In this document: positions 2,640 through 43,999 of the stretch, in pieces
Layout: every line of letters starts with the position of its first letter
Numbering within the stretch: the first letter of the stretch is position 1
Source of the DNA: a virus
Virus record (IMG/VR): IMGVR_UViG_3300011008_000142
Strand: one strand, 5' to 3'
Length of the DNA: 55,810 bases
Notes under the pieces: model-generated
What the model was told of the DNA's origin: nothing
What the model saw: only the letters and a program-made list of their open reading frames with translations
The model's database searches: none
Made by a program: the position numbers and the translations under genes

Positions 2640-3281
2640 ATGAAGTTCGAGAGCATCAACCGCAAATTCACCGAGACCGTCGCCGAGTGGATGGCGAAAG
2701 GCTGGTACATCAACACTGCCTCCATGAGAGGCAGCCAGGGCGAGATCGGAAAGGTCGACCTGACGGACGGCACCGAGGTCATCCGCGTTCTGCTCGACAA
2801 CTTCCGCGAGTGGGGCATACGGATCGAGGACAAGCGGTACGAGTTCGAGGGCGTGAAGATCGTGGTCGGCAAGGTCACGGACGGCACGATCCCCAACCGC
2901 TCGGACGACTGGAACACCGTCTGGAACGAGCATCTGGAGATCATCACCAAGGAGCGCTTCTACGAGATCGGCGACAGCCGCCGCAATAAGTGGTACGGCA
3001 CCCGGGAGGAATCCATCGCCCAACAGGATAAGGCCTGGGGCCGCTACACCAGACGTCAGATCGAGAACGTTATTATCATCGGCGCCCGCAATCCCGTGGA
3101 CAACAAGAAAGTCGCCGAGATAGCCAAAGCCTATGTGAAGCGTCAGCCGAGATGCCGTAGCACAAAGCGCCGCGACATCAAGGCCGTCAAGAAGACCATC
3201 GACACCAACCGCTTCGACCGCACCGTTACCGTCCGCTACACCATCGAGACCATCAAGGGTAACACCTACCGTCTGCACTAA
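2640..3281 (+). CDS. Hypothetical protein (213 aa)
   Basis: Long ORF with protein-like composition, immediately upstream of the amidoligase. Family not recognised. Confidence 0.65.
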   Translation: MKFESINRKFTETVAEWMAKGWYINTASMRGSQGEIGKVDLTDGTEVIRVLLDNFREWGIRIEDKRYEFEGVKIVVGKVTDGTIPNRSDDWNTVWNEHLEIITKERFYEIGDSRRNKWYGTREESIAQQDKAWGRYTRRQIENVIIIGARNPVDNKKVAEIAKAYVKRQPRCRSTKRRDIKAVKKTIDTNRFDRTVTVRYTIETIKGNTYRLH

Positions 3282-3294
3282 GGAGGAAAGATCA

Positions 3295-3540
3295 ATGACC
3301 ACCATTCAGACCCAGAACTTCGGCGTAGAGATCGAGCTGACCGGCATCACCCGCGAGAAGGCCGCCAAGACTATCTCCGCGTACTTCGAGAGCAACCACC
3401 GTCACACCGGCGGCTCCTATGACACCTGGTCTGCCTACGACCGCGAGGGCCGCATCTGGAAGGCCATGTCCGACGGCTCCATACGCCGCACACGGAAAGT
3501 GGACGGGCGGCAGGTCTCCGCCGACTGGACGTACTCCTGA
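3295..3540 (+). CDS. Amidoligase (Amidoligase_2-like) N-terminal fragment, ends at in-frame TGA
   Basis: RBS AAGGAGGAAAG. FGVEIELTGITREKAA and WKAMSDGSI motifs. Same reading frame as 3547..4224. Confidence 0.75.
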   Translation: MTTIQTQNFGVEIELTGITREKAAKTISAYFESNHRHTGGSYDTWSAYDREGRIWKAMSDGSIRRTRKVDGRQVSADWTYS

Positions 3541-3546
3541 GAGATC

Positions 3547-4224
3547 GTGACCCCGATCCTCCAGTACAAAGACATGGAAGACCTCCAGCAGATCGTCCGG
3601 CTCCTGGTCAAGAAGGGCGCCGTCGCAAACGACAGCTGCGGAATCCACGTCCACGTGGACGGGGCGAATCATACCCCCGACAGTCTCTCCCGCCTGCTCA
3701 ACTTTGCCGTCGGCCGTCAGGATCTTTTCTACGAGGCCCTGCAGATCGGCGACCGCGCCAACCGCTGGTGCCACAAGGCCAACAAGGACCTGTTCAAAGC
3801 CATCAAAAAGGACCACACCGACCGCCGCACCATCGAGCGCCTGTGGTACAGCAATCTCAACGACGGATACCGCGGCGGAATCAGCCACGAGCACTACAAC
3901 GACACCCGCTACCACGGTATCAACCTTCACGCCTATTTCACAAAGGGCACCGTCGAGTTCCGGCTGTTCAACGGCACGACCCACGCCGGGAAGATCAAGG
4001 CCTACGTCCAGTTCTGCTTGGCCATGTCCGCCTGGGCGATCAACTGCCCGAACGATAACCTGTTCTTCAAGTCCACCGCCAACATGACCCAGGATCAGAA
4101 AGCCGCCCTTATGCTCCGGGTCCTCACCAAGCGACTGAAAATGCGCGGGCTGGAATTCAAGACCGCCCGGCTCCACCTCACCAGCGCCTTCACCCAGACC
4201 GCCACCGCCGAAGAAGCGGCGTAA
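3547..4224 (+). CDS. Amidoligase (Amidoligase_2-like) C-terminal fragment
   Basis: Continues EIVTPIL...CGIHVHVDG...RYHGINLH...GTVEFRLFNGTTHAGKIKAY. No separate RBS; contiguous in frame with 3295..3540. Confidence 0.75.
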   Translation: MTPILQYKDMEDLQQIVRLLVKKGAVANDSCGIHVHVDGANHTPDSLSRLLNFAVGRQDLFYEALQIGDRANRWCHKANKDLFKAIKKDHTDRRTIERLWYSNLNDGYRGGISHEHYNDTRYHGINLHAYFTKGTVEFRLFNGTTHAGKIKAYVQFCLAMSAWAINCPNDNLFFKSTANMTQDQKAALMLRVLTKRLKMRGLEFKTARLHLTSAFTQTATAEEAA

Positions 4225-4269
4225 AAACTCCGGCTGTCCTACCGGCCACACGGGGAGAAAGGGAAACGA

Positions 4270-4923
4270 ATGAATCTGTACCTCGCCTACGGTTCCAACC
4301 TCAACGTACCGCAGATGAAAAACCGCTGTCTCGATGCCGAGCCCATCGGAAAGAGCGCGATCACTGATTACCGTCTCGCGTTCCGTGGGAATTCTCGCTC
4401 CGGTGTTCTGAACATCGAGCCGTTCCCCGGCAGCTCCGTCCCCGTGGTGATCTGGAATATCTCCGAGAGGGACGAGGAAGCTCTGGATATGTACGAGGGC
4501 TACCCCCACCTGTACACGAAGCAGACCTTCACGGTGGAATTCGAGGGGAGTCAACTCCAGGCCATGGCCTACATCATGACCCCCGGCCACAAATACGCGC
4601 CGCCTTTCGACAGTTACCTCCGCACCGTGGCCGATGGCTATGACTATTTCGGCTTCGACGCCAACCCTGTGTACGAGGCCGCCACCATCGCACACGCCCA
4701 CGCCGGGAAACTCGACGCTGAGAAGCCCGTCATCAACTATGACAGTCGCGGAGAGACGGGAAATGTCTATTGGCTCCTGGGGGCCGTTCATAGCGCCTTG
4801 CGGCGCGAGCACCGTCCGACCGATTATAATACCTGCCGGGATGCCGTCCTCGCCTCTCAGAGCTATGACGAAGCTCTCAGCATCATGTCCCGGTATGTAA
4901 CGCTGGTAGACAAGAGCAAGTGA
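4270..4923 (+). CDS. AIG2-like / gamma-glutamyl cyclotransferase family protein with C-terminal extension
   Basis: N-terminal LYLAYGSNLN...YRLAF...VVIWNISERDEEALDMYEGYP pattern, typical of the GGCT/AIG2 fold. Confidence 0.7.
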   Translation: MNLYLAYGSNLNVPQMKNRCLDAEPIGKSAITDYRLAFRGNSRSGVLNIEPFPGSSVPVVIWNISERDEEALDMYEGYPHLYTKQTFTVEFEGSQLQAMAYIMTPGHKYAPPFDSYLRTVADGYDYFGFDANPVYEAATIAHAHAGKLDAEKPVINYDSRGETGNVYWLLGAVHSALRREHRPTDYNTCRDAVLASQSYDEALSIMSRYVTLVDKSK

Positions 4924-4940
4924 TCCCCATAAAACGAAAA

Positions 4941-4976
4941 ACGCCCCTCACGGTCATTTCTGGCCGAGAGGGGCGT
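4941..4976. terminator. Bidirectional hairpin terminator between convergent genes
   Basis: ACGCCCCTC ... GAGGGGCGT with A-run upstream and T-rich downstream. Lies between the 4923 stop (+) and the 4982 stop (-). Confidence 0.7.
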
Positions 4977-4981
4977 CCTGT

Positions 4982-5314
4982 TTATACATTTTCGATGATG
5001 TGTTCCTGCACGTTCACGGATCTCGACATGTCGGCAAACGCATCAATCATACTGCCGACCGCGTCAAGGTCGATGTCGTAATTGAACGTATCCGCGGCGG
5101 CCTTGACGCACGTCAAGACCCACTCCTTGCGCTCGGGGCCGGATCCGAATTTACCCTCAGCCTCCTTCATGCGCTCGAGAACGAACGTCACGACCTTCTG
5201 CCAGTTCCGCTCCTTCACCGCCGTTCTCACGGCCTCGACGAGCTTGACTACCAGCGGGATCGTCACGCTGAGCCCCGAGAGGATCGCCACGATCCATTTG
5301 ATCCATTCCTGCAT
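4982..5314 (-). CDS. Holin candidate (LL-H-type-like)
   Basis: N-terminal TM WIVAILSGLSVTIPLVV, then a charged helical domain. Last gene of the lysis cassette. Confidence 0.5.
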   Translation of the reverse strand: MQEWIKWIVAILSGLSVTIPLVVKLVEAVRTAVKERNWQKVVTFVLERMKEAEGKFGSGPERKEWVLTCVKAAADTFNYDIDLDAVGSMIDAFADMSRSVNVQEHIIENV

Positions 5315-5332
5315 TTGCTGTTCCTCCTTTTC

Positions 5333-6238
5333 TCACGCGGCCATAAGCGAGGCAAACGTATCGGCGCCTGCCTCGCCATCCTTGGCCAGATTCTTGTCGC
5401 CCTGGTACGCCCTCACAGCTGCGTATGTACTGCCGCCGAACTCACCGTCGAAGCCGTTCGGATTGTAGCCTCGGCAGTAAAGCATCCCCTGCAGGATGTA
5501 CACAAGGTCGTTTTTGTCGCCCTTCTTGAGTTCGATCTTCTTGTCGGACATGAACGCCTTGGTCTTCGGACCGAAACCGCCGTCCACTTTGAGCCCGGCG
5601 CTGTAGGACTTGTTGAGATACGTCTGCAGAGCCTTGACCGCGGCCATGCGCGTCTGCTTCCCGAACACGCCGTCCACGCCGATGCTGGTGGCGTAGTTCT
5701 GGTTGAGCCACTTCTGGAACGCGGTGATGTAGGTGTTGTATCCGGTGGACGCGCTGCCGGATCCGCCGCTGTACGGCGGGCGGTACACCTCGCAGTTGCT
5801 GCCGAGAGTGCGCTTTTTATAGCCGATGCCCTCGAACGCGCCGGTCCCGGAATTGGACGCCCTCGCCTGCGCTGCCGTGGCGTAAACCGTGGCGTTGCCC
5901 TCCAGTGTGATCTTCGTTATGCCGCTGTATCCGTCGAAGCAGAAACAGACATGCTGCAGCGGACCGACGCAGATGATATCACCTGCACGGGCGTCCTCAT
6001 TCGGGACGCGCCATCCTTTGCCGCGCATATAATCCCGGATCGTCGGGAGATATGCCGGGTTGGAGCACCCGTCCAGCAGGTTGCACCCGGATTTCTTGAA
6101 TGCATACTTCACCGTCAGGCCGCAGTACGCCGCCCCCGGCCAGTTAAAATACTTGTTGATGGTCGTGTTGTTATTGGAGTTGATCTCCCTCTCGCCGGCA
6201 AGATCCATCACCGGCTTCATTACTTCCATGCCTGTCAT
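5333..6238 (-). CDS. Endolysin: N-terminal cysteine peptidase (CHAP/NlpC-P60-like) plus three peptidoglycan-binding (PG_binding_1-like) repeats
   Basis: NWPGAAYCGLTV...GDIICVGPLQHVCF (Cys/His). VDGVFGKQT, VDGGFGPKT and FDGEFGGSTYAAVRAYQ repeats. Confidence 0.85.
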   Translation of the reverse strand: MTGMEVMKPVMDLAGEREINSNNNTTINKYFNWPGAAYCGLTVKYAFKKSGCNLLDGCSNPAYLPTIRDYMRGKGWRVPNEDARAGDIICVGPLQHVCFCFDGYSGITKITLEGNATVYATAAQARASNSGTGAFEGIGYKKRTLGSNCEVYRPPYSGGSGSASTGYNTYITAFQKWLNQNYATSIGVDGVFGKQTRMAAVKALQTYLNKSYSAGLKVDGGFGPKTKAFMSDKKIELKKGDKNDLVYILQGMLYCRGYNPNGFDGEFGGSTYAAVRAYQGDKNLAKDGEAGADTFASLMAA

Positions 6239-6241
6239 GGT

Positions 6242-6565
6242 TCAGTCTCCTTTCGTGATGATCTCGGCAAATCTCGCCGCCGCCTCCCAGCCGTCTTTCG
6301 CGGCGATTTTCTCATACCAAAGCTGGGAGTATTTGTTTCGATTTTCGCTTCTGGCCTTCCAGAAGTAGGCCGGAGTCACGAGCGCAACCAAGCCGTACCA
6401 CACCTCTGTCAGTTCCTTCATGCAGCGCATGATGTCGGGATTCGGCTCTGGCGCTCGTCCCATCCGTACTGTGATGACCGTCAGTATGATCGCCATACCA
6501 TAGGCCAGAACGAGGATGATCTTCGACGCGCTGAGTTTCTTACTCTGGTGCTTGTATCTGCTCAT
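6242..6565 (-). CDS. Holin candidate (XhlB/SPP1-holin-like), 2 TM
   Basis: TMs IILVLAYGMAIILTVITV and VWYGLVALVTPAYFW, followed by K..SEN. Lies between the XhlA-like gene and the endolysin. Confidence 0.45.
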   Translation of the reverse strand: MSRYKHQSKKLSASKIILVLAYGMAIILTVITVRMGRAPEPNPDIMRCMKELTEVWYGLVALVTPAYFWKARSENRNKYSQLWYEKIAAKDGWEAAARFAEIITKGD

Positions 6566-6663
6566 CGGCGTTCACGCCTCCTTTCTCCTGGGGATCTTCC
6601 GGTTCGATGGGACCGAGGGCCGCCGGGTTGGCGACGAAAGCGTCGTAGGGCAGATCACGCCTG

Positions 6664-6888
6664 TCAATTCGAAATTTCCGGCTCTTGTCCTGCGGTGTCA
6701 TAGATGATCACCTCTCCTTCCTCGGTCAGATAATGCATGGTGTCCTCCTCCGGATACGGCGGGTCCTCGTATCGCACGACGATCCGCAGGGTGCTGTCCG
6801 TCGTCTCCGGCGCGTCCATAAGGACGAACGCGAAAAATGCCAGGATAAAGAGAATCCCTATAAAAGGAATCCACCACGGTTCTTTCAC
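6664..6888 (-). CDS. Small membrane protein (74 aa)
   Basis: GTG start chosen just after the upstream stop. TM WWIPFIGILFILAFFAFVL with an acidic C-terminal tail. Confidence 0.45.
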   Translation of the reverse strand: MKEPWWIPFIGILFILAFFAFVLMDAPETTDSTLRIVVRYEDPPYPEEDTMHYLTEEGEVIIYDTAGQEPEISN

Positions 6889-6893
6889 ACCGA

Positions 6894-7184
6894 TCACCCC
6901 AGCCCCAATAACGCCTTGACGGCGTAGCCGACGATCAGCCCGATCACCGCCGCGACGATTGCCTCCCAACGCTTGCCAGGGGTGGCTTTCAGGTCTTTGA
7001 CATCTGACTTGATCTCGGTGACGTCCGACTCAATCTGCTCCTGTTTGGCCTGCATGACCGCAACCGATTTTGTCAGAACCTCCAAATTGTCCTGCCGCTT
7101 CTCCATAGCGTCGAGGCGCTTTGTGTTTGACTTTGACCGCGCCGTTGTCTCGGTCAGTTCTTTTACGATCTGTTCGCTTTCCAT
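6894..7184 (-). CDS. xhlA: XhlA-like lysis-associated protein (coiled coil plus C-terminal TM)
   Basis: KRLDAMEKRQDNLE coiled coil and C-terminal WEAIVAAVIGLIVGYAV anchor, as in PBSX XhlA. Confidence 0.65.
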   Translation of the reverse strand: MESEQIVKELTETTARSKSNTKRLDAMEKRQDNLEVLTKSVAVMQAKQEQIESDVTEIKSDVKDLKATPGKRWEAIVAAVIGLIVGYAVKALLGLG

Positions 7185-7216
7185 TACTCCACCGCCTTAT
7201 ATATGGTTTTTGAGAG

Positions 7217-7244
7217 AAAAAGCCCGCGGGTTACCCCGCGAGCC
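7217..7244 (-). terminator. Rho-independent terminator (minus strand)
   Basis: Minus-sense GGCTCGCGGG-gtaa-CCCGCGGGC followed by TTTTT. A second weaker hairpin plus T-run lies at 7261..7288. Confidence 0.6.
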
Positions 7245-7287
7245 TTCTGTTTTCTGCAACAAAAAAGAGCCGCAGATGCGACCCTCT

Positions 7288-7479
7288 TTATTCAAGATCA
7301 AACGACGCTTCATCCGAGCCGATAGCCTTGGAGTATGCAGCCTCGACGCCTGCTATGGCCTCCTGCTCGATCTCGCTCAATCCGTCCAGTTCCGAGAGGC
7401 GGGAGGACAGTTTGCGAATGAGCTTTATCTGACACTCGACGATGTAGCACAGTTCCTCGATCAGTTGCAGATTCGACAC
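7288..7479 (-). CDS. Hypothetical protein (63 aa)
   Basis: ORF with helical, protein-like composition, followed by tandem terminators. Confidence 0.5.
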   Translation of the reverse strand: MSNLQLIEELCYIVECQIKLIRKLSSRLSELDGLSEIEQEAIAGVEAAYSKAIGSDEASFDLE

Positions 7480-7484
7480 AGCGC

Positions 7485-7631
7485 TTACTCTCCGATTACG
7501 ATCTGGTCGTATTCAGCCTGGGTGAGCTTTCCGGCGTCCACCAGCTTCTGGAGCATCCGCGCCGTCCACCTGCCGCTGTCATACTTGGCTTTGGCAAGCT
7601 CGAAAAATTCAGAGTGTTCACTGTTCGTCAT
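7485..7631 (-). CDS. xkdX: XkdX-family small phage protein (48 aa)
   Basis: Not in the ORF track. MTNSEHSEFFELAKAKYDSGRWTARMLQKLVDAGKLTQAEYDQIVIGE matches the XkdX pattern (W..... V..GKIT.EEY..I). Confidence 0.6.
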   Translation of the reverse strand: MTNSEHSEFFELAKAKYDSGRWTARMLQKLVDAGKLTQAEYDQIVIGE

Positions 7632-7788
7632 CGTCGGTTTCCTCCTCAAACAGATCTTCGATGTCTACATCGTTCAGCACGCCGAGAAACTCGATCATTT
7701 CCATGGCCTTGTCCAGTGCGATCTTCAAACGTCTGTTCTTCCGGCGTTCTTCCTTCAACGCCTGCCTATCGTTCTTGATGATGTCCAT
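7618..7788 (-). CDS. Hypothetical small acidic protein (56 aa)
   Basis: ATG after GGAGGCATTTGT. Its stop overlaps the xkdX start (ATGACGAACAGTGA). Confidence 0.45.
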   Translation of the reverse strand: MDIIKNDRQALKEERRKNRRLKIALDKAMEMIEFLGVLNDVDIEDLFEEETDDDEQ

Positions 7789-8905
7789 ACAAATGCCTCC
7801 TTACTGGCTTGTACTGTGGTTTTTGTCGAAATGTGATTGTGTAAAACCGGTCCATATCCCGAATGAGCCCGCCGCCTGTCGCATATGACGCCTGGGATAT
7901 GAACGCCTGATAGTGATTATGCACCGCGTCCATGGTAATCTCGCCGCGATCCAGAGCGTCCTTCATCCCGGCGAGCGTCTGCCGCTCATAGCGAGGAACA
8001 CTGGGATGTAGTTTGATGATCACCTTTCCTGTGCCTGTCAGGACAAAACGTTTCCGTAGGAAGTAGAAGCCGTCTTTCAACCGGAAGATACCGGTCTTGT
8101 CTGTGCAAGTAAAGCCTCGTTCTTCCAGCATTGCCACTATGGTGTCCCGCGCCCGCTCGCACACAGACCGGTCTTTGTCCACGACCTGAAAATCATCCAT
8201 GTACCGCTGGGAATGATGGCAGAAGGTTTTCAACTCGTGGTCGATCCGGTTGAGAAGCGCCACCTGGTGAAGCTGGTTGATCTGGCTGCCGAGGCCTGTC
8301 CCCCGCGATCCGAATGGATCGGCGGCGATGACATCTTCCGGCCTCTGGTCTTTAGCGCTTACGGCGATCTCCCGCAGATATGGCAGGAATCGGTCATCCG
8401 TGATAATGGACTCATCCATCATCACGATCTCCCTGTGCGGCGTAGATGGGAAGTACTTCTTCACGTCCAGGTGGATGCCGTAACCCTCGTTCGTACCGTC
8501 CTCCATGTAAACGCTGTGCAGCATGGCGACGGTGCGGCGTATCGCCTGCTCGGTGCCCTTTCCCTTCTGGCAGGCGCTGTTGTCGTAAACGAGGCTCCTT
8601 GTCAGGTCGTCGTATACGCCGTTATTACACATAGCCCGCTGCCAAACGCGATCCTTGAACCACGGAGCTATGGCCTCGCGGCGCTTCGGGCGGTAAATCT
8701 GGACACGGTTTCCCGGACGCAGCCTGTACCGACCTTTGAGCAGGTCGGTTTTCAGCGTGTATGCTTTCATGAGGCTGTGCATATACCAGTCGGTCGGGCC
8801 GTCCTTATAGCTCACACCGCTCCGGCACTCCCGGATAGCGCGGACGAGTTCGTTCATGCTGATAGCATCGTCATACTGAGCCATGCGCTGATCATCGCCT
8901 CCCAT
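7766..8905 (-). CDS. DGR reverse transcriptase
   Basis: RT motifs including YMDD (QRYMDDFQVV) and the DGR-typical GLGSQINQL (xGxxxSQ) motif. Lies directly downstream of TR. Confidence 0.9.
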   Translation of the reverse strand: MGGDDQRMAQYDDAISMNELVRAIRECRSGVSYKDGPTDWYMHSLMKAYTLKTDLLKGRYRLRPGNRVQIYRPKRREAIAPWFKDRVWQRAMCNNGVYDDLTRSLVYDNSACQKGKGTEQAIRRTVAMLHSVYMEDGTNEGYGIHLDVKKYFPSTPHREIVMMDESIITDDRFLPYLREIAVSAKDQRPEDVIAADPFGSRGTGLGSQINQLHQVALLNRIDHELKTFCHHSQRYMDDFQVVDKDRSVCERARDTIVAMLEERGFTCTDKTGIFRLKDGFYFLRKRFVLTGTGKVIIKLHPSVPRYERQTLAGMKDALDRGEITMDAVHNHYQAFISQASYATGGGLIRDMDRFYTITFRQKPQYKPVRRHLYGHHQER

Positions 8906-9222
8906 AACAGAAAAGCGGCCTCCGAGCGTTCATCTGCTCAGAAGCCGGTTTCCCGGCGCCGCCGCTGATAGCAGCACACCCGAAGCGCCTGCGTCGTCAG
9001 AGCACGGTTTGCCATTCCGTGCGCGGCCTCTTTTTGCCCTTACGGGACAGGAAAACGGCTCCCTGCGCGAGTGCTTTGCTTTCGGCAGATTGCTTACTTG
9101 TCTCTCGCGTATCTCGCAGTCTGGGCACGACCCCGTTCGCGTTGTTCGCGTTGTTGTTGTTGAGAGCGCCGGACGGGAGCACGTTCCGGACGTTGTTGCC
9201 GTTGGACGGGTTCACGGAGCCT
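8906..9222 (-). ncRNA. DGR template RNA region (TR plus about 210-nt spacer preceding RT)
   Basis: Non-coding stretch between avd and RT that contains TR. The ORF 8997..9482 across it is Asn-codon rich only within TR. Confidence 0.5.
9116..9222 (-). repeat. DGR template repeat (TR), 107 bp
   Basis: Aligns base-for-base with 10006..10112. All 17 differences lie at T on the plus strand, which is A in the sense strand. TR carries 12 AAC codons. Confidence 0.93.
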
Positions 9223-9234
9223 CTAAATCCTACA

Positions 9235-9783
9235 TCAGCCGTCTCCCCCGATATGGTCACTGTCATAGACAGGCACATCGCATTCTTTCGGGCGAATCCA
9301 TGCGCGGAGCATCTGCCGCATATCGACAAGAATCGCGATAACGCTCTCGCTGATGGAGCCGTCAAAGGTCGGGGTACCGTATCTCTTCTCGTCGCTGGTT
9401 TTCCATGCAAGTAGCTTGCTCCGACAGTCATTGGCGAGTTTGGCGTAATGCTCAAGCTTATTCGGCTCGATATCCAGCACACGCATGGCTAGGTTCATCT
9501 TGGCGTCAATGGCCATCAAATGCGCCAGCGCCATGTTCAGCTGGTGGTGTCGCTCGTCCCGATCTCTTGCCGTCTCCACATGGATTTCGTTGGCGAGGAA
9601 TATACAGGTATGAAAGTCGTTCACCAAGTCGGCGATCTTTCCGCCGAACAGCCATCGGCTGCGCTTCGGGAACTTATCCTCCGCACACAGCATCCTGAGC
9701 ACATACTGGCAGAATGTGTCCGAGGCGTTCAGCGCCGGGGTCTTCGCGGATATATTGCGGATTTTTGTTCCTCTCGCCGGCAT
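9235..9783 (-). CDS. avd: Avd-like accessory variability determinant (four-helix-bundle family), unusually long (182 aa)
   Basis: Start at MPARG after AAGGCGGTGAAGCT. KFPKRSRWLFGGKIADL...FLANEIH pattern of Avd / 23S-IVS four-helix-bundle proteins. Sits between VR and TR. Confidence 0.7.
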   Translation of the reverse strand: MPARGTKIRNISAKTPALNASDTFCQYVLRMLCAEDKFPKRSRWLFGGKIADLVNDFHTCIFLANEIHVETARDRDERHHQLNMALAHLMAIDAKMNLAMRVLDIEPNKLEHYAKLANDCRSKLLAWKTSDEKRYGTPTFDGSISESVIAILVDMRQMLRAWIRPKECDVPVYDSDHIGGDG

Positions 9784-9916
9784 AGCTTCACCGCCTTTTC
9801 CTGCGACGAAACAATACCGCACCCGGGCGCCGCTTGTCCAGCTTTTCTAATTTTCTTCGGCCAATGATGAATAATCTTCGGTTTATCGGGAAATCCGATT
9901 TTTCCAGAAAAATTTT

Positions 9917-9931
9917 CCGCGCTTCGCGCGG
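9917..9931. terminator. Short GC hairpin with flanking A/T runs
   Basis: CCGCGC-ttc-GCGCGG flanked by AAAATTTT and AAAG. Lies between the target gene and avd. Confidence 0.35.
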
Positions 9932-9942
9932 AAAGAACGCGA

Positions 9943-9981
9943 TTGCGGCATGACGCCGCTGGCGCAGCGCCCATGCCGCAA
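9943..9981 (-). other. Perfect 10-bp-stem hairpin/cruciform just downstream of VR
   Basis: TTGCGGCATG ... CATGCCGCAA with an inner CGCTG-gcg-CAGCG stem. Begins 25 nt beyond the VR 3' end. Confidence 0.6.
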
Positions 9982-9994
9982 GACGACGGATGGC

Positions 9995-11443
9995 TTACGC
10001 GATATGCAGGCTGGGCACGACCCCGTACGCGCTGCTCGCGTAGCCGCTGCTGAGAGCGCCGGACGGGAGCACGAGCCGGACGTGGTGGCCGACGGACGGG
10101 CCCACGGAGCCTAGCCACCAGTAATACGCAGCCGAATCTTCTTTGATCCTGTCCGCCTGTTCGTTGTTCTCCTGCCAATAGCTGTATGCTGTGGTTCTCG
10201 TGAGGTTCCCGCTGGCATCCACGGGACCTTCGGAGATGTTGTTGTTCTTGCTTCCGAACACGTCCAGCATCGTGGCCAGGGTGACGTAGTCCTCCACATC
10301 CTCGTAGCCGTAACCGTCCGAAATAGACAGGGCATAGCGCTTCCGCACTTTGCACAGCACCGCACGCAGCTCCGAATCCAGCGTATGCAGGAATCCCTCC
10401 GGGGTGGCGCTGGTGTTGCGGCTCCAGATGGTGCCGGGCTTCCAGGCCAGAGCTGCATCGTCACTGTTGAGCAGCTGACGGAGATACGACGTGCTCCAGC
10501 GGTTCGAGCCGTAGATCTGGCGGTCTGTGAAATTGATGTAGTCCCCGGACTTATACTGCGGATCGCGCGCTGTTGCGGTGCCGAGGTTTATGCCATCAGA
10601 TCCTTCGGTTGTGGTCAAACCCGTTTCCAGCGTGGTAATGGTGTCCGCACCGTATGTGATAAAGGTGCCGCCGGTTACATGGCTCTTTACATAGCCAGAC
10701 GAATCAGAAAGCCATCCACCTATCGTGGTATGCCGGATGCCACCGCCGATAGGGATATCCACGGTGGTCGTGAACTGATACGTCCCATCCTCACCTGTAC
10801 CGTTGCTGTACGATCCGTGGTTGAGAGTGACATTGTATGTACCAGCGGGGAGCACCGAGCCCGTAATGCCGAGAGCCGCCAGAGATTCAGCCGTCACCGG
10901 GAACAGATACTGCGGAGGATCGAAGTTAATCCTTCCCATGATCTTATCCCGCTGGATCGTCAGCACATGCTCCAGCTCGCTGTTGACGGGCGTCTCCTCG
11001 TCGATGCCCATCGCGTTGTAGTCCGCCGCGCCTGCCGCAACGACCACGGTGATCGTATCGTCTGCCGCTGGGGTGCCGGTGATCGAAACACCGTAGCTCG
11101 CGAGGGTCACTGCGTGACCGCCGTGATACCATGCCGCACCGTCGTAGGTGAACACATACGTTCCCGTGGCGGATTCCACCGCCGCCAGGAACGTGTCTTT
11201 CACCACCGTCGGCGTGCCGCTCAGCGAGCCGCCGACCGAGGCCGTGATGGTGTAGCCGCTGTTGACGGAGAGCTGATCCCCGGCGCTCAGATACCGCCTG
11301 ATACGGTTGTGCCGGACGGCGCCCTGGAACTGCGCCCATGTTTCCAGTTTACCGGGCGCGAGTTCGCCGATAGAGTCGGCCACGGATTCCAACGCAGCCG
11401 CCACTCGTTCGGCTTTGGTTCCTTCCCAAATGCTTACGCTCAT
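9995..11443 (-). CDS. DGR target: tail-fibre / receptor-binding protein with C-terminal variable (C-type-lectin-fold-like) region
   Basis: Position in the fibre cluster. C-terminal ...YYWWLGSVGPSVGHHVRLVLPSGALSSGYASSAYGVVPSLHIA is encoded by VR. Confidence 0.85.
   Translation of the reverse strand: MSVSIWEGTKAERVAAALESVADSIGELAPGKLETWAQFQGAVRHNRIRRYLSAGDQLSVNSGYTITASVGGSLSGTPTVVKDTFLAAVESATGTYVFTYDGAAWYHGGHAVTLASYGVSITGTPAADDTITVVVAAGAADYNAMGIDEETPVNSELEHVLTIQRDKIMGRINFDPPQYLFPVTAESLAALGITGSVLPAGTYNVTLNHGSYSNGTGEDGTYQFTTTVDIPIGGGIRHTTIGGWLSDSSGYVKSHVTGGTFITYGADTITTLETGLTTTEGSDGINLGTATARDPQYKSGDYINFTDRQIYGSNRWSTSYLRQLLNSDDAALAWKPGTIWSRNTSATPEGFLHTLDSELRAVLCKVRKRYALSISDGYGYEDVEDYVTLATMLDVFGSKNNNISEGPVDASGNLTRTTAYSYWQENNEQADRIKEDSAAYYWWLGSVGPSVGHHVRLVLPSGALSSGYASSAYGVVPSLHIA
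10006..10112 (-). repeat. DGR variable repeat (VR), 107 bp
   Basis: See TR. VR codons GVHHL...SSGY.SS.Y replace the 12 TR Asn codons. The invariant GC-rich 3' segment CGGGGTCGTGCCCAG lies at 10011..10025. Confidence 0.93.
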
Positions 11444-11461
11444 GTCAGATATTCCTCCTAT

Positions 11462-11959
11462 TTAAGATCCTGCATAGGTTACTGTGGTTTTCAGCGTGCT
11501 CAGATCCGTCACAAAGGTGATCGTCTCGCCTGTGCTCAGAGTCCTCACCTCAGTGACAGCCGCGTCGGTGTAGGTGAAGGCGTCCGTCCTGACGGTCTGC
11601 CCGCCCGCTGCGTGCGTGATCTGCGACACGGCCCCATTGGTATAGTCATACGTCTGTACCGTGCCGGGGATGGCATCGTGCAGCAGCTTCTCGTTGATCT
11701 TCAGCTGATCCAGATCTTCCGCGCCGACGATCCCGCACTCCTGCCAGATGGCCCCGGTGTACGCAAACTTTTTCTCGCCGTACACAGCCACGTTCCCGGC
11801 GACCGCCGTTACCGCCGTGCCGCCGATGATTATTGGGTTCGTGGTGCAGCCCTCGGTCAGCTCCGTCACAGTCACGCCGATGTACGTCGTGGCGTTCGAC
11901 AGAAGCTCAAACTTCCCCTGGGTGAACTGCCGTGCCAGCAGATATGCCGTGATGTCCAT
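11462..11959 (-). CDS. Tail-fibre-associated protein (165 aa), shares a C-terminal module with 12224..12592
   Basis: C-terminus IPGTVQTYDYTNGAVSQITH..VRTDAFTY...VTEVRTLSTGETITFVTDLSTLKTTVTY aligns with the 122-aa neighbour. Confidence 0.6.
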   Translation of the reverse strand: MDITAYLLARQFTQGKFELLSNATTYIGVTVTELTEGCTTNPIIIGGTAVTAVAGNVAVYGEKKFAYTGAIWQECGIVGAEDLDQLKINEKLLHDAIPGTVQTYDYTNGAVSQITHAAGGQTVRTDAFTYTDAAVTEVRTLSTGETITFVTDLSTLKTTVTYAGS

Positions 11960-11960
11960 G

Positions 11961-12194
11961 TCACTTCACCTCCGTCCATGTGTCCGACGGCGACAGAATC
12001 CACGCGGCCGAGCCGTCCGCCGTGTAAGCCACGCTGCCCACAGCCGCCACCGCGCCGTCCACTGCCGACGTGGATGTTGGCAGCTGACTCACGTCCGCAG
12101 CGCTGTCCAGCACGAACTCACGGTAATTCACGCTTTTGCCCAGGGTGTTGATATCCCGCCCGCTGCCGCCGGTCGTCACGATTGAAAATGCCAT
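11961..12194 (-). CDS. Hypothetical structural protein (77 aa)
   Basis: Tightly packed ORF in the fibre cluster; start 2 nt after the upstream stop. Confidence 0.5.
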   Translation of the reverse strand: MAFSIVTTGGSGRDINTLGKSVNYREFVLDSAADVSQLPTSTSAVDGAVAAVGSVAYTADGSAAWILSPSDTWTEVK

Positions 12195-12223: not shown

Positions 12224-12592
12224 TCAACTCGAATACGTTGACGTGGTTGAGAGTGTAGTCAGGTTCGTCACGATCGTGAGTGTCTGCCCGGTTGCGAGCG
12301 TCCGAACCTCCGTGATCGTGTCCTCCCCGAATGTGAAAGCGTCTGTGCGGATCACCGTGCCGTTGAGCGTGTGCGTCACCGTCGAAACATTACCGGAGCC
12401 GTCGAAGGTGATCGCCTGGGTCGTGCCGGGGATGGGATCGGCGCCGAGCTCCGCGCCGAAGTATGCCGCAAATTTCTCGTGCGGTACCCGGAGGAGCGAA
12501 GGGGTGCCGCCCTCCGTCTGAGAGACATATACGTTCGTGTCCTGCCTCAGCTCGGTGGCCTGCGTCTGCACTGTTATCAGTTTTGTTGCCAT
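12224..12592 (-). CDS. Tail-fibre-associated protein (122 aa), paralogous C-terminal module
   Basis: IPGTTQAITFDGSGNVSTVTH..IRTDAFTF...ITEVRTLATGQTLTIVTNLTTLSTTSTY. Confidence 0.6.
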   Translation of the reverse strand: MATKLITVQTQATELRQDTNVYVSQTEGGTPSLLRVPHEKFAAYFGAELGADPIPGTTQAITFDGSGNVSTVTHTLNGTVIRTDAFTFGEDTITEVRTLATGQTLTIVTNLTTLSTTSTYSS

Positions 12593-12607: not shown

Positions 12608-14020
12608 TTATTTCCACGCCAGATAGAGATATTTCCGTCCATTGGCATCTACATCCGCAGTGCCAGAATAGTACGCAACTCCAAAACCATTCGTCATAAC
12701 TGCCGCGCCGCCATGGCCTCTAGCAAACAATGCTTCAGGTGTAGCAGTGCTCATATCTCCGCAGCCAGAATGATAAATGTTGTTGTTCGTGCCAAAGCAA
12801 TAATAATAAGAGCCGAGAGGGAAATAATTATAATAGCTTTGATTCGACTGGTAGCTGCTGCGCGTGAAGGTGTTATATTCCGGGATTACAAAGATCACGA
12901 CCTTTGATGGCTTAAAGCCAACCTCAATGAAGTGATAATTGTTCACGCCCGACGTTCCCTGGCCGGTATACGTTCCAAAAGCATCCGGGTTGCCAAAGAG
13001 AAGAGACAACAACGGGATGTCTGTAATATCGTGCTCATGTTGTTTTGCCGCCAAGTAAGTCAGCAGATTCGTATAAATATTGGCTGCAAAATCAGAGAGG
13101 CTGCCGACACCTGTACCGCCCTGTTCGACCGGCATAATACCACTGGTGATTTCGGCGGCACTGTGGGTATGGGACAGGCTGGCAAGATGCGATTTAAGCG
13201 AATTGGCGAGCGCAGCGATAGATGACACGCCGGTACCCCCATTCGCAACGCTCATAATTCCACTGTTGATATCCGCGGCATTGTGGTAATGATATTGAGC
13301 GGCCGCCCCCGTCTGCAGGTAAGTAACGGCATGCGGGTTTGCGCGGTCCGCAATATGGGATATCAGGTTGGATATGGCTCTCGCGATTTTGCCGAACGCG
13401 GTGCTCAGCGTTTCACCGCTGGAGAGATTCGACGCAGAACCGGGGACGGTATAAGTAGGTGTCTGATTGTTCGTAGATACGTTCGGAACGTTGGCGAGAC
13501 CGACCTGAGTCTTCGTGACCATATGCGGGTTGTCGTAATCGTAGATATGGCCTTCAAACTCGGATTTGGTCGCATACACCAGGGACTCACTGATCACAGC
13601 GCTTACGTCTTCAACGTCGCCGATATACACCTTCATAATAAGCGTCGTTTCCAGCGTGTAGTCTCCAGCAGAGGGGATGTACATTGCGTTCGACGACTCA
13701 ATGTATCCATACGCAAAAAGAATCTTCTGGCTCGGGTTGTCAGGGTTTTCGACCCATACACCCATCTCGGTAGCTCGGTACGATGCCGAAACGCTGGCGT
13801 TGTTCAGATATGCCGCGATGTTCACGAAGGTATCATCGAAGGTCATGCCGGTGATCGACATTGTGTTGAGCTCATTTGCAAGCGCTGTTACTTGATCGTC
13901 AAGGCCGCTGTTGTTACCATTTCCTATGGAAACGCCGTTGAATTTTATGTACGCATCCTCCGGTGATACAAGGCACTGCTGAATCAAGCCTTTGCCGATC
14001 GCGGTCAAATAAAGTACCAT
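12608..14020 (-). CDS. Tail fibre protein
   Basis: N-terminus MVLYLTAIGKGLI..ikfngvsiGNGN resembles tail-collar fibre N-domains. Internal H.H.AA(D/E)I.SGIM.V..GGTGV repeats. Confidence 0.75.
   Translation of the reverse strand: MVLYLTAIGKGLIQQCLVSPEDAYIKFNGVSIGNGNNSGLDDQVTALANELNTMSITGMTFDDTFVNIAAYLNNASVSASYRATEMGVWVENPDNPSQKILFAYGYIESSNAMYIPSAGDYTLETTLIMKVYIGDVEDVSAVISESLVYATKSEFEGHIYDYDNPHMVTKTQVGLANVPNVSTNNQTPTYTVPGSASNLSSGETLSTAFGKIARAISNLISHIADRANPHAVTYLQTGAAAQYHYHNAADINSGIMSVANGGTGVSSIAALANSLKSHLASLSHTHSAAEITSGIMPVEQGGTGVGSLSDFAANIYTNLLTYLAAKQHEHDITDIPLLSLLFGNPDAFGTYTGQGTSGVNNYHFIEVGFKPSKVVIFVIPEYNTFTRSSYQSNQSYYNYFPLGSYYYCFGTNNNIYHSGCGDMSTATPEALFARGHGGAAVMTNGFGVAYYSGTADVDANGRKYLYLAWK
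13100..13292 (-). repeat. Two imperfect ~75-bp direct repeats, 120 bp apart, inside the tail fibre gene
   Basis: ...taccactggtgatttcggcggcactgtgggtatg vs ...ttccactgttgatatccgcggcattgtggtaatg. They encode the repeated GGTG fibre motif. Confidence 0.7.
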
Positions 14021-14035: not shown

Positions 14036-14713
14036 TTATGCCAATTCGCAGAGCCACGCGAGATCCTCGTTCGTTAGGATCACACCGTCAGTGTCAATGA
14101 AGAAATCCACATCGGCCATCGCGGGCGTGTCGCAGTCAACCTCCGAGGATATCCGCGCCTGCATTCCGATACCTGCGTACAGGTTGAGCTCTGCGCGGTC
14201 TTCGAACAGGATGAAGTATTCCACGGCCTCCAGCACAGACCGCGCAGATTTGTAAAAGTTCACGTTATCCAACAGCGCATTGTGCAGCGCAGCCGTTGGC
14301 TGTCCGTCTGTGATGTTAACTCGCAGCTTGAAGAAATAAGGATCACCGTTGTAATCCATCCATTCCAGCACTTCCGAATCCGGGTGAACAGCAGACACGG
14401 CGGTCTTGACCGACTGGACCGTTCCAAGGTGCTTGTGGACGTAGAAACTCTTTTTGAAGACGCGGCGCTTCTGTTCCAGGCTCAGCGTTTCATCCCACCA
14501 GTCGATCTTGAAATCATACGCCAGGATATCCAGAGCCTTCTCTTCCAGTGTATCGATGTTCGGGTAGATCGCACACAGTTTCGCCTCCGCGACGGCTCCC
14601 GACAGGTAATCCGCGAAGACATCCCCCAGCGTGGAGATCGCCTCGCTGCGCTGCAGGACCTCCGGGAATACGCGGAGAACCGCTTCCTTCGTGATCCCGT
14701 TACTCATACTCAA
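14036..14713 (-). CDS. Baseplate/tail protein, P2 gpI-like (XkdU-position)
   Basis: LDILAYDFKIDWWDETLSLEQKRRVFKKSFYVHKHLGT matches the gpI pattern (LA....vD.W......KR..i.....h..KGT). Confidence 0.65.
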   Translation of the reverse strand: MSMSNGITKEAVLRVFPEVLQRSEAISTLGDVFADYLSGAVAEAKLCAIYPNIDTLEEKALDILAYDFKIDWWDETLSLEQKRRVFKKSFYVHKHLGTVQSVKTAVSAVHPDSEVLEWMDYNGDPYFFKLRVNITDGQPTAALHNALLDNVNFYKSARSVLEAVEYFILFEDRAELNLYAGIGMQARISSEVDCDTPAMADVDFFIDTDGVILTNEDLAWLCELA

Positions 14714-16052
14714 AGCCTCCGTTCGTAATCGTCACGGCGCCAACGGAGGCGAGCTCGGGCGGCTTGTTGTTCAAGCCATCGTTGAGGGCGCGATAGGCGG
14801 GGCTTGTGACGGCCACGCGCTTGATGCCGGTCTCCATGAGCAGAGATATGAGCTTGGAGGGGTTGATGTCCCGTCCGAGTTTCCCAGCCTGCCAGCTCTT
14901 GTATTCCTCCACAGCCGCCGTGACAGCGTTCGCGATCTCGGTTGCCGACGAGCTGGCGTCGCGCGGGATGTAGTATGTCAGATTGATGTTGTACGACACT
15001 GTAGTGGGATCTTTGACGGAGACCTTGTCCGTCAGCGGCCTCACTTCCTCCGAATTGCAGATATCGAGGATCCTGCCTTTCAGCGTTGCCGACGGGATAG
15101 ACCCATCATTCATCAAGCCATAGATCCACACCTCACCGGCGAGGATGCTGTCTATCGTCACCGTCAGAGAGGCCGCGCTGTAATACGAGCTGCCGGAAAG
15201 CAGCGTAATCGTCAGAAGCCCGTCGGCATAGGCAACGGAGTAATCCGTGTCCTTGACAAGAGCCGTACTCCCCGACTTGATCACCAGCGTGTCGGTTTTC
15301 AGGTTGGCGCCACCGACGAACAGACAGTGATCGTGAACCGCGACCGTATCGGACAGCGTTTCCACAGGCTGAATGACCACCACATCCGCGATCTCCGTGC
15401 TGGCGGTTTTCGCCCAGTAGATATAGCTGCCAGACGCGCCCGCCGAGGAATACCCATCCTCGGATGCTCTCATGAGTTTATAAAACTCCTCGTCCGTCGC
15501 CTCGTCATACCCGCCGTCGGATGTCGTGACATTCGCGCAGCTCTCATAAAACGGGTAGATATCCACCAGTTCCGTGATCTGTCCGGCTACCCAGCCGTTA
15601 CCTTCTTCGCCGGCGGTCTGGCACACAGCCGTCACCGTCACAGATGTGTTTCCCGCTGTGATCGCCGCGTCTTCGGTCGTCGCCCAGACAAGCGTATTGT
15701 TGGCGTCCGTGATGCGCGTACCAGCAGGAACGATGACCGTCGAGCTCTGCGCTGCAGAAATATTGAACTGCATCGTGCACTGTGCAGCCGCGGCCGCCGG
15801 GCGCGTCTTGTCATAGAACAGCTCTGCTATGGCATCCAGATTGTCCCCCTCCGCGCGGCTGGGGATATTCTGGTTCGCCGCGTAGTTGATAAGAGAACGC
15901 AGCTGCACGATGATGTCAGCCGCCCAGGTGATAAAAAGACGCTCCGGGCTGGCCGGAGCGAGGGATTTCTTTGTCAGAGCTTCATACGCCCTTACCATGG
16001 CAGACACGATCTCGGCCGCGTTCGTTGATACGAATTTGTATTCACTCGCCAC
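14700..16052 (-). CDS. Baseplate J-like protein
   Basis: Size, position and N-terminal pattern of gpJ/XkdT baseplate wedge proteins. Confidence 0.75.
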   Translation of the reverse strand: MASEYKFVSTNAAEIVSAMVRAYEALTKKSLAPASPERLFITWAADIIVQLRSLINYAANQNIPSRAEGDNLDAIAELFYDKTRPAAAAAQCTMQFNISAAQSSTVIVPAGTRITDANNTLVWATTEDAAITAGNTSVTVTAVCQTAGEEGNGWVAGQITELVDIYPFYESCANVTTSDGGYDEATDEEFYKLMRASEDGYSSAGASGSYIYWAKTASTEIADVVVIQPVETLSDTVAVHDHCLFVGGANLKTDTLVIKSGSTALVKDTDYSVAYADGLLTITLLSGSSYYSAASLTVTIDSILAGEVWIYGLMNDGSIPSATLKGRILDICNSEEVRPLTDKVSVKDPTTVSYNINLTYYIPRDASSSATEIANAVTAAVEEYKSWQAGKLGRDINPSKLISLLMETGIKRVAVTSPAYRALNDGLNNKPPELASVGAVTITNGGFEYE

Positions 16053-18654: not shown

Positions 18655-18855
18655 TCACCTTCTCCACGGCGGGAGGCTGCTGTTCACAGCCTCCTCGACG
18701 TCAGGGATCACCAGTTCCACGCCAGCAGAAAAAATGAAGGTTTCGCACAGGCTGATGTTGGCATCGATCAGCAGGTGGGTGTAATCGGTAGAGCTCATCT
18801 GCGTGTAGGCGATAGCATCCCACATATCCCCCTGCTTCGTGGTATAGGTCTTCAT
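18655..18855 (-). CDS. Tail protein X-like / LysM-like small protein
   Basis: MKTYTTKQGDMWDAIAY...VELVIP matches the gpX/XkdP LysM-like pattern. Confidence 0.6.
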   Translation of the reverse strand: MKTYTTKQGDMWDAIAYTQMSSTDYTHLLIDANISLCETFIFSAGVELVIPDVEEAVNSSLPPWRR

Positions 18856-28404: not shown

Positions 28405-28423
28405 CTTCACTTTCCTCCTATCC

Positions 28424-28831
28424 TTAGTCCTCGAACATCTGCGTGAAGCGGATATTGTACTTACGCAGAGTGTCCTTGTCGGCGGCGGTGAGCTCGTAGC
28501 CATCGGCCACGATTACGGCATTGGGGTTGAAATTGCCGCTGCAATACGCAACGGCGGGAACGTCTGCACTGCCGCTGGCGTCCACATCATTGACGAGGAT
28601 AGCGGAAGGTTCACCGACAACGGTGGTTTCCTCATCGTCGCCCTCGCCGGTGGTGGCGGTCGTGCCGTAGACGATGTAGGCGCCGCTGTCCGAACGGGCC
28701 AGCACAGTGCCGCGCTTCAGTTCACCCTCACCGGCGGCGATCTTCACGCCGGTCGTGAGGGCGCTGGGGAACAGCCGTGCGATCAGGTTGTCCTGATCGA
28801 TGCTCCCGACTTTGTTGACGAGATTATCCAT
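28424..28831 (-). CDS. Head decoration protein, lambda gpD-like
   Basis: Start at MDNLVNKV. The pattern ...LKRGTVLA......Y..Y........ILV.DVDAS...V.AY.SG.FN is typical of gpD-like decoration proteins. Confidence 0.7.
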   Translation of the reverse strand: MDNLVNKVGSIDQDNLIARLFPSALTTGVKIAAGEGELKRGTVLARSDSGAYIVYGTTATTGEGDDEETTVVGEPSAILVNDVDASGSADVPAVAYCSGNFNPNAVIVADGYELTAADKDTLRKYNIRFTQMFED

Positions 28832-43842: not shown

Positions 43843-43999
43843 TCTTCTGCATGCCCTCCATTACGATCTGCTCCGGCACGAACTCCTTTACGTCGTACAC
43901 CCGGATGCCGCCCAGGTGTTCAAGCGCCTGGGCGATCGCCTCCTTGGTCCCCTGCTGCATGCCGGGCGGACAGTCGGCGTAGATCGTGATGATCAGCAT
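43808..43999 (-). CDS. Hypothetical small protein (63 aa)
   Basis: ORF overlapping both neighbours by a few codons. Confidence 0.4.
   Translation of the reverse strand: MLIITIYADCPPGMQQGTKEAIAQALEHLGGIRVYDVKEFVPEQIVMEGMQKNEVHHPSHIQR

Follow-up and report, generated by a model that had tools for sequence, protein, structure and literature searches.

A complete and probably recently active diversity-generating retroelement in the genome of a temperate, contractile-tailed phage

Introduction

Diversity-generating retroelements (DGRs) are abundant in gut phages and constitute a very large known class. The DNA analysed here, IMG/VR virus record IMGVR_UViG_3300011008_000142 (55,810 nucleotides in total, referred to below as the window), is the genome of a temperate phage or prophage with a contractile tail. 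On its minus strand it carries a cassette of a target gene with a variable repeat (VR), an avd-like accessory gene, a template repeat (TR), a spacer and the gene of a reverse transcriptase (RT). A sequence-only reading of the same DNA had described this cassette as a complete DGR with the adenine-mutagenesis signature of Bordetella phage BPP-1, as intact and active in appearance, and as directed at the C-terminus of a tail fibre. In this study, we follow up these claims by comparison with related loci and with near-identical genomes from other samples. We hold it highly probable that the locus is a complete, recently active DGR of a temperate myovirus-type prophage, which probably belongs to an Oscillospiraceae or Faecalibacterium-like gut bacterium.

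Results

Organisation of the cassette

The cassette lies between fibre-like genes on one side and an XkdX-like open reading frame (ORF), a holin gene and a lysin gene on the other. Its core consists of the following features.

9995..11443, minus strand: DGR target gene, an ORF of 482 amino acids (aa), helical and beta-rich in its N-terminal part, with a DUF6273 domain at the C-terminus (aa 306-481) that bears the VR
10006..10112, minus strand: VR, inside the 3' end of the 482-aa ORF, spanning codons 444-479 of 482
9235..9783, minus strand: avd-like gene, 182 aa from the ATG at 9783; the core of the product (aa 16-135) is a modelled four-helix bundle, and the C-terminus is extended
9116..9222, minus strand: TR, with 27 A, 24 of these inside 12 AAC codons, and an end (9116-9136) resembling the IMH* element (IMH, initiation of mutagenic homing)
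7766..8905, minus strand: DGR RT of 379 aa, with D147, YMDD at 235-238, R76 and L205-GSQINQ

The reported order of target with VR, avd-like gene, TR, spacer and RT is borne out by the ORFs and the repeat positions, and the location between fibre cluster and lysis cassette by PHROG assignments.

TR and VR differ solely at adenines of the template

A repeat search found a direct repeat of 107 nt (9116-9222 and 10006-10112, 84% identity, ungapped). Realignment of TR 9222->9116 with VR 10112->10006 reproduced the gapless 107 bp and the 17 differences given before. Read on the minus strand, each of the 17 mismatches is an A in the TR (9 to G, 4 to T and 4 to C in the VR), and no position other than A differs. 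Adenines make up 27 of the 107 nt of the TR, and the hypergeometric p for 17/17 mismatches on A is 3.6e-13; the A-bias for which a test had been proposed is present. In the frame of the target, the TR contains 12 AAC codons, all 12 of which are altered in the VR, to G,V,H,H,L,S,S,G,Y,S,S,Y, the same residues as read from the sequence earlier. The diversified codons are aa 448, 451, 453, 454, 457, 465-468, 470, 471 and 473 (window 10027-10102), and 9 nt separate the end of the VR from the stop codon of the target ORF. Randomised as NNC, these 12 codons allow a theoretical maximum of 15^12 (~1.3e14) peptides, with no stop codon possible. The repeat pair shows the DGR arrangement throughout: differences solely at TR adenines, a VR at the target's 3' end and a TR rich in AAC. 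The A-masked TR pattern matched only the TR and VR copies in the 55.8-kb window (0 expected by chance), and nothing was found with it among IMG/VR and JGI metagenome contigs.

The VR is rewritten between near-identical genomes

A look-up of the exact RT and Avd proteins led back to the contig from which the window itself comes (ENA ERZ3810914, 100% identical) and to two JGI contigs from other samples, L006 (6134 bp) and L008 (1136 bp), which we used for comparison. L006 corresponds to window 4422-10555 at 99.77% identity, with 14 differences. Twelve of the 14 lie in the 107-nt VR, every one at a TR-A position (12/12); the other two are at 7568 and 4448. The binomial probability of such clustering in the VR is 7e-20. 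L006 has the same TR as the window, and so does L008 as far as it covers the repeat; L008 also has the VR allele of the window. Among otherwise near-identical genomes, L006 and the window thus vary in the VR at TR-A sites. The VR has been rewritten at A-sites while the rest of the 6-kb stretch gained two substitutions, and this is the signature of mutagenic retrohoming. Because 12 of the 14 differences in L006 lie in the VR, all at TR-A positions, we conclude that the DGR diversified recently, and since 12 differences in the VR stand against 2 in the other 6 kb, homing has been faster than the ordinary divergence of these genomes. A-site rewriting of the VR is not proof of activity in the sampled population; as the evidence consists of assemblies with two VR alleles, it is the between-sample differences that point to current activity.

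The same data have to be weighed against a genuine DGR that has fallen dormant or survives as a relic, in which case VR pattern and alleles would be a record of past homing. Only two alleles occur in the three assemblies, with L008, from a third sample, repeating the window VR exactly. Both alleles moreover agree in five substitutions within the mutagenised VR part; selection or partial homing, instead of independent events, may account for this agreement. A survey reported several intact DGRs of Faecalibacterium prophages without read-level variation (PMC11792537). Dormancy nevertheless appears unlikely to us in view of the excess of differences in the VR over the other 6 kb, the intactness of all ORFs and RNA elements, and a TR that is the same between samples with all 12 AAC codons kept. 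The intact and active appearance noted from the sequence is upheld by the intact elements and by a VR polymorphism limited to TR-A sites between samples.

In metagenome assemblies, the family of this locus is represented by RT homologs, about 200 in number and at best 72-73% identical, and by target homologs, of which there are about 230. Around 95 loci were fetched and about 20 related loci examined for TR and VR. Most of the latter show the order target-avd-TR-spacer-RT and A-biased TR/VR differences; three carry 1-2 non-A mismatches. In the contig of the closest RT relative (L010, 72%), 2 of 17 TR/VR mismatches (4671-4771 versus 3897-3997) are non-adenine. Its TR has AGC and ATC for expected AAC-type codons, which suggests mutations in the TR itself. 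An ENA contig with the same RT (L009, 4596-4695) has a gap of 100 N in which the stretch from VR to TR is collapsed, an artefact that the repeat caused in assembly and a warning for searches for DGRs in assembled sequence. A nucleotide search of INPHARED returned only matches of 63-77 nt, to the TR region.

The reverse transcriptase is related to Brt of BPP-1

The RT matches PHROG 1423 (E 1e-49). Its best PDB match is 8ub7 (E 9e-8), and the aligned residues of the RT chain of this entry agree with the Brt translation that we used for hhalign. A profile of 22 RT homologs aligned with BPP-1 Brt over 294 columns (hhalign probability 98.3%, E 1.9e-14). D147, D237 and D238 are invariant in the 22 homologs; the YMDD seen earlier lies at residues 235-238, and the catalytic Asp is kept on alignment with Brt. 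These results place the RT in the DGR lineage with its catalytic residues present. The hhalign alignment pairs R76 with R74 of Brt and L205-GSQINQ with I181-GSLTSQ of Brt; R74 and I181 are two residues of Brt that were shown to promote adenine mutagenesis (PMC7826257). The stretch GLGSQINQL, which had been called a DGR-type motif, is present (residues 204-212), but instead of being the canonical motif it aligns with IGSLTSQL of Brt as an N-for-S variant, and the N is at least 90% conserved in the RT clade. Most homologs of the clade have YNDD as catalytic motif, and YMDD is found in the window and a minority (alignment of RT homologs P0001-P0120). Asn at that position of the catalytic motif is unusual for RTs.

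Some RT homologs are annotated as 'retron-type RT', and NCBIfam and PADLOC gave generic or below-threshold RT matches only (e.g. TIGR04416, 57 bits against a cut-off of 300). Such labels would suit an unrelated RT, of a retron, a group II intron or a defence system, lying beside a diverged duplication. This is contradicted by the A-only mismatches (p = 4e-13), the recurrence of the TR/VR architecture in most of the ~20 loci, the alignment of the RT profile with Brt along its length, and a VR that differs between samples at TR-A sites only; nor did Rfam find any retron or intron RNA. The retron, group II intron and defence RT readings were rejected, and we consider a non-DGR origin effectively refuted, with next to no probability left to it.

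The accessory protein is Avd-like in fold and position

The product of the avd-like gene matches PHROG 3206, 'Avd protein of DGR' (E 1.6e-6). An AlphaFold2 (AF2) model built with database homologs shows four long helices (pLDDT 76.8, core > 90). The top Foldseek matches of the model are 2gsc and 2rld (TM 0.78-0.87, rmsd 2.1-2.5 A), which we take to be members of the 23S-rRNA-IVS four-helix-bundle family, in which Avd is also placed. Foldseek also recovers Bordetella Avd itself (4dwl, probability 0.90, TM 0.71). The core is basic (pI 9.1), as in Avd-type accessory proteins, with the four-helix bundle found at the level of fold only. Among the relatives of the protein only one matched bAvd (E 0.038). 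We accept the protein as Avd-like at the level of modelled fold and synteny only.

Residues ~140-182 (9235-9360, minus strand) constitute a C-terminal extension of 40 residues with a predicted fifth helix. Only one database homolog (P0242) has it as well, and most relatives stop about 34 residues sooner; in several relatives the avd ORF runs into the TR. One further element was noted upstream of the gene.

9811..9840, minus strand: sigma-70-like promoter match upstream of avd, weak and from a consensus scan only, the match count in the region not being above shuffle expectation

Repeat ends and the hairpin downstream of the VR

Three elements lie at or beyond the 3' end of the VR.

10006..10026, minus strand: IMH-like 3' end of the VR, ACGGGGTCGTGCCCAGCCTGC, G/C-rich, one fixed base apart from the TR, at 10010
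9943..9981, minus strand: inverted repeat, a hairpin or cruciform candidate, 24 nt downstream of the TR/VR homology, with 17 bp, one bulge and a GCCA loop
9908..9934, minus strand: intrinsic-terminator-like hairpin (9914-9934) and T-run after the target gene

The shared end of the two repeats reads GGGGTCGTGCCCAG(C/A)CTGC. The last TR/VR mismatch, at TR position 102 (window 10010 in the VR, 9120 in the TR), changes the single AGA codon of the TR to AGC in the VR and is the same in every lineage. Among the loci compared (L004, L010, L011, L015 and L018-L033), GACTG of the TR becomes GCCTG in the VR in 8/8 loci, and in a sister group CCGACC becomes CCGGCC in 6/6 loci; in L004 and L030, which are one contig, the encoded residue is not altered by the change. 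The difference at 10010 is, as judged from these aligned relatives, a fixed IMH/IMH* difference and not a random mutagenic outcome. Because this mismatch is fixed across relatives, the mutagenic mismatches number 16, not 17. The AGA to AGC change had been listed alongside the mutated AAC codons; the change itself stands, its reading as an outcome of mutagenesis does not. IMH and IMH* are imperfect repeats after the mutagenised zone (PMC5758913), with which the fixed difference at 10010 is in agreement. An IMH-like element at the VR end and a non-identical, G/C-rich IMH*-like counterpart at the TR end are thus recognisable in the sequence, and their single-base difference at a template adenine suggests a discriminator of donor and recipient.

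The G/C-rich inverted repeat downstream of the VR has a DNA fold z of -3.6. In the relatives a hairpin occurs at the same site after the VR, with compensating changes in the stem and with GACA or GGCA loops. These loops fit the 5'-GRNA consensus of the hairpin/cruciform that is required for target recognition in BPP-1 (PMC3240598).

Covariation supports a structured RNA in the spacer and around the TR

Between the end of the TR (9116) and the start of the RT (8905) lies a spacer of 210 nt, in accordance with the length of about 210 nt estimated before. The following RNA elements were delineated in and around it.

8906..9115, minus strand: structured spacer RNA between TR and RT, 210 nt, from covariation in relatives
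9113-9118 with 9063-9071, minus strand: helix of TR end and spacer, from the spacer alignment
9071-9083, minus strand: conserved GAAAGCAAAGCAC block in the spacer, from the spacer alignment
9037-9047, minus strand: GUAA-capped stem-loop in the spacer, followed by an A-run (~9029-9035); further helices are also present
9237..9248, minus strand: 5' strand of a long-range RNA duplex, GGGGAGACGGCU, 14 nt upstream of the TR
9049-9060, minus strand: 3' strand of the long-range duplex, AGCCGUUUUCCU, in the spacer, pairing 12/12 with 9237-9248
8916..8947, minus strand: terminator-like stem-loop and U-run at the spacer 3' end, directly before the RT start, with the GGCCGCUUUUCU motif kept in L010 and L011

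An alignment of the spacers of 13 relatives contains 36 consensus pairs, 13 of them with compensatory changes. The cells of this alignment are paired at 92.6%, versus 38-48% with the partners slid, and none of 500 shuffles reached the observed values for percentage paired, pairs with two-sided changes and covariation score. A covariance model built from the spacer (R1) matched 46 loci, every one on the RT strand immediately 5' of an RT, including loci whose RTs are just 30-37% identical; it gave no match to BPP-1. Rfam had no match in 7000-12000 even at E <= 1, and contains no family that fits the spacer RNA. Folded as a single sequence, TR and spacer show no stability beyond that of shuffles (z = 0.05); it is covariation, and not energy, that speaks for the structure.

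The central bases of the long-range duplex covary across 17 loci (ACAGC/GCUGU, CGGUCC/GGACCG, AUCCGGC/GCCGGAU and CAGCGGUC/GACCGCUG). This pairing was found by an anchored 12-mer search; per-locus shuffle tests of it are modest, and with RNAduplex, run on the long flanks, shuffled sequences reached equally good energies. In the helix between the TR 3' end (9113-9118) and the spacer (9063-9071), GCGAG/CUCGC of the window is replaced by GUGAG/CUCAC in relatives, a compensatory change. By analogy, this helix resembles the TR:Sp priming duplex, and the long-range duplex with the stem-loop and A-run that come after it fits the description of 'cPRT Stop' (bioRxiv 10.1101/2023.10.23.563531). The stem-loop at 8916-8947 could terminate an abundant TR-spacer RNA and keep the RT low via read-through.

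The target carries a DUF6273 domain

Pfam DUF6273 matches the target at aa 306-481 above the cut-off (E 3.9e-11). In the AF2 model (pLDDT 93.3) the VR falls on the C-terminal strands of this domain. DUF6273 has been described as a C-type-lectin-like DGR target domain with the VR at its C-terminus (PMC11792537, PMC10743442). The Foldseek neighbours of the model are DUF6273 proteins of uncultured phages and the N-terminal part of 9qa6, the T. ramosa IgA (immunoglobulin A) peptidase, whose N-terminal domain is annotated as DUF6273. A few structural neighbours in BFVD carry the names tail-collar fibre or receptor-binding protein (RBP). The relatives in PHROG either lack an annotation or are called 'Hoc-like head decoration', which is the label of phrog_10993, matched by the DUF6273 region. 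A search of the target against PDB sequences gave no match. Comparison with Mtd by hhalign gave a probability of 0.1, i.e. no detectable relationship, which leaves the target outside the Mtd family, and in Foldseek against PDB neither Mtd nor any C-type-lectin entry came up at E <= 0.001, nor did Mtd among the 50 matches listed.

The element had been called Mtd-type, and this holds for the mechanism of adenine mutagenesis and not for the target protein. As to the proposed comparison with C-type-lectin-fold proteins, the Foldseek search just mentioned is the one that brought up no such entry at this threshold. The designation of the target as a tail fibre claims more than the comparisons show, the protein itself being recognisable by its DUF6273 domain; homology to characterised fibres was not found, and only synteny and the few fibre and RBP names in BFVD speak for it. 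We infer a tail-fibre role from gene position only. Because the tail-fibre module has the target gene at its distal end, the protein most likely changes what the virion binds.

Alternatively, the target could be a virion-surface or accessory adhesin for mucus glycans, immunoglobulin or other environmental ligands, rather than a host-receptor-binding tail fibre, as has been proposed for Hoc-like and 'tentaclin' DGR targets. The Hoc-like label of phrog_10993, the lack of homology to Mtd or to any characterised fibre, and the IgA peptidase as sole solved structure at E <= 0.001 agree with this, and the literature names no ligand for DUF6273 targets (PMC10743442). The baseplate and tail-fibre module, on the other hand, has this gene at its distal end, immediately ahead of the XkdX-like, holin and lysin genes; the gene comes after a fibre-like gene and two small paralogous ORFs, and the BFVD neighbours of its product include the tail-collar fibre and receptor-binding proteins mentioned above. 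On balance we regard an adhesin as a possible but rather doubtful reading of the target. As the sole solved structural relative is 9qa6 with its N-terminal DUF6273 annotation, which is a hint, a more specific version can be put forward: the DUF6273 tip would bind a mammalian-gut ligand (IgA or mucin glycans) and not a bacterial receptor. We consider this a speculative and very improbable idea; if true, what the DGR adjusts would be the retention of the phage in the gut or its immune interaction there, not host range.

The two small ORFs between the fibre-like gene and the target (11462-11959 and 12224-12592, both minus strand) have a C-terminal segment in common (53% identity over 58 aa, E 5e-16), and no family matches were found for either. 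A relationship of the 165-aa neighbour to the target N-terminus as a paralogue was rejected as not significant (E 0.11).

Genome context and host

The surrounding genes, named by PHROG assignment, are listed below.

43-1116: integrase
5333-6238: endolysin
6894-7184: holin-like protein (PHROG label 'hemolysin')
12608-14020: fibre-like protein
14036-16052: baseplate proteins
18852-22502: tape measure
23623-25056: sheath
27313-28503: major head protein
30022-31665: portal
32024-34526: small and large terminase

The large terminase (TerL) is 62% identical to those of Faecalibacterium phages Taranis and Pioen, and named homologs of the RT and target come from metagenome-assembled genomes (MAGs) of Oscillospiraceae and Lachnospiraceae. 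A scan of GTDB genomes with the RT found no relative. On the basis of the TerL similarity and the MAG names of homologs only, the host is likely a clostridial gut bacterium.

Outside the cassette, a type II hammerhead ribozyme (Rfam RF02276, 37.6 bits with a gathering score of 37, E 4e-4) was detected at 2563-2627 on the plus strand, directly upstream of a plus-strand block (2640-4923) near the integrase with amidoligase-like and GGACT-like genes. Further phage cargo on the minus strand consists of a PAPS-reductase-like gene (phrog_2302), a ParB-like gene and a gene for a Sak4-like ssDNA-annealing protein (35717-36865, 43993-45384 and 51577-52572).

Discussion

Proposed mode of action

The A-only pattern, the Brt-like RT, the Avd-like bundle, the IMH-like ends, the hairpin and the RNA structure together bear out the claim of a complete DGR with adenine mutagenesis of the BPP-1 type. 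Anatomy, homologies, covariation and VR polymorphism at A-sites are direct results of the comparisons; the steps of priming and homing and the presence of a ligand are put forward by analogy with BPP-1. In the proposed mechanism, an RNA comprising the avd 3' end, TR and spacer would fold in such a way that the 12-bp duplex brackets the TR and the TR 3' end pairs with the spacer segment. The RT, bound to the Avd-like protein, would cis-prime on this RNA and copy the TR to cDNA with misincorporation opposite adenines only. Guided by the G/C-rich IMH-like end and the downstream hairpin, the cDNA would then replace the VR, while the one fixed base (A in the TR, C in the VR) and the divergent flanks would mark the TR as donor and the VR as recipient. 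As an outcome, 12 Asn-templated codons would be randomised, within the C-terminal strands of the putative ligand-binding DUF6273 domain.

Apart from the two VR alleles in three assemblies, one of them repeated in L008, and their five common substitutions, several results weigh against a complete and active DGR of this type. The motif LGxxxNQ of the RT departs from the DGR signature [I/V/L]GxxxSQ (PMC7826257) by N for S, with the first, second and last positions kept, and Pfam RVT_1 scores 27.6 bits against a gathering score of 29.6. The sequence of the accessory protein is without similarity to Bordetella Avd (hhalign), Pfam bAvd or any PDB chain (single and profile searches), and the Foldseek E-values of its model are just 0.01-1.4. 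In the window the loop of the hairpin is GCCA and does not fit GRNA; the hairpin, moreover, does not adjoin the homology but begins 24 nt further on. The C-type-lectin fold of the target is unconfirmed here, Foldseek against PDB at E <= 0.001 having given 9qa6 only.

Significance

The window adds one well-documented, intact example to the known DGR class. Two VR alleles in otherwise near-identical genomes amount to a clean natural experiment, and the family as a whole shows covariation in three elements: in the duplex that brackets the TR, in the spacer RNA and in the hairpin after the VR. This comparative set could seed a covariance model for DGR RNA annotation and the prediction of priming and stop sites. 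The fixed single-base IMH/IMH* difference is a small, testable clue to the distinction of donor and recipient. The comparative RNA and hairpin results are useful refinements, not surprises.

Comparison with known systems

Group II intron and retron RTs have the RT palm and fingers fold in common with the RT of the window (PDB matches with E 4e-6 to 1e-5). The window differs from them in that it has no maturase, intron RNA or msr/msd, in its DGR-type motif ([L]GxxxNQ, not QGxxxSP), and in the association of the RT with a TR/VR pair and an Avd-like protein.

With the DGR of BPP-1 (mtd-avd-TR-brt) the gene order is identical, and in both phages the cassette lies beside lysis genes. Both have A-specific transfer from TR to VR, 12 variable C-terminal codons in the target, a G/C-rich IMH-like end and an inverted repeat after the VR, and the RT is homologous to Brt with equivalents of R74 and I181 present. 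In contrast to BPP-1, the target is unrelated in sequence to Mtd, the accessory protein has no detectable sequence similarity to bAvd, and the spacer is longer (210 nt versus ~140 nt), the spacer covariance model missing BPP-1. IMH and IMH* of the window differ by one base, the RT motif is LGxxxNQ, and the hairpin is longer (17 bp), further from the VR and closed by a GCCA loop. The structure of the bRT-Avd-RNA complex of BPP-1 (bioRxiv 10.1101/2023.10.23.563531) likewise contains a tetraloop-capped stem-loop followed by adenosines and a TR 3' end that pairs with the spacer; the RNA sequences are unrelated, and in the window the RT is preceded by one more hairpin, which is terminator-like.

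For prophages of the Faecalibacterium type, DGRs that have a DUF6273 target were published in 2023-2024 (PMC11792537, PMC10743442). The prophages Roos, Pioen, Lelie and CP11 (PMC11792537) and the tgt2 targets of the phages nd4 and nd12 (PMC10743442) have much in common with the window: they are temperate phages of gut Bacillota, with a DUF6273 target and the VR at the domain C-terminus. Besides the TerL relationship to Pioen and Taranis (62% identity), the TR region is ~80% identical to nd12 over 69 nt. Unlike these prophages, the window has a single target gene, no tentaclin and an RT of a separate clade, and relative to deposited phage genomes its RT is 26-33% identical at best and its target at most 31-33%. 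On current sequence records, this RT clade is so far known only from metagenome assemblies. Activity of the Faecalibacterium prophage DGRs was shown by comparing cognate genomes, an approach that was also taken for the window.

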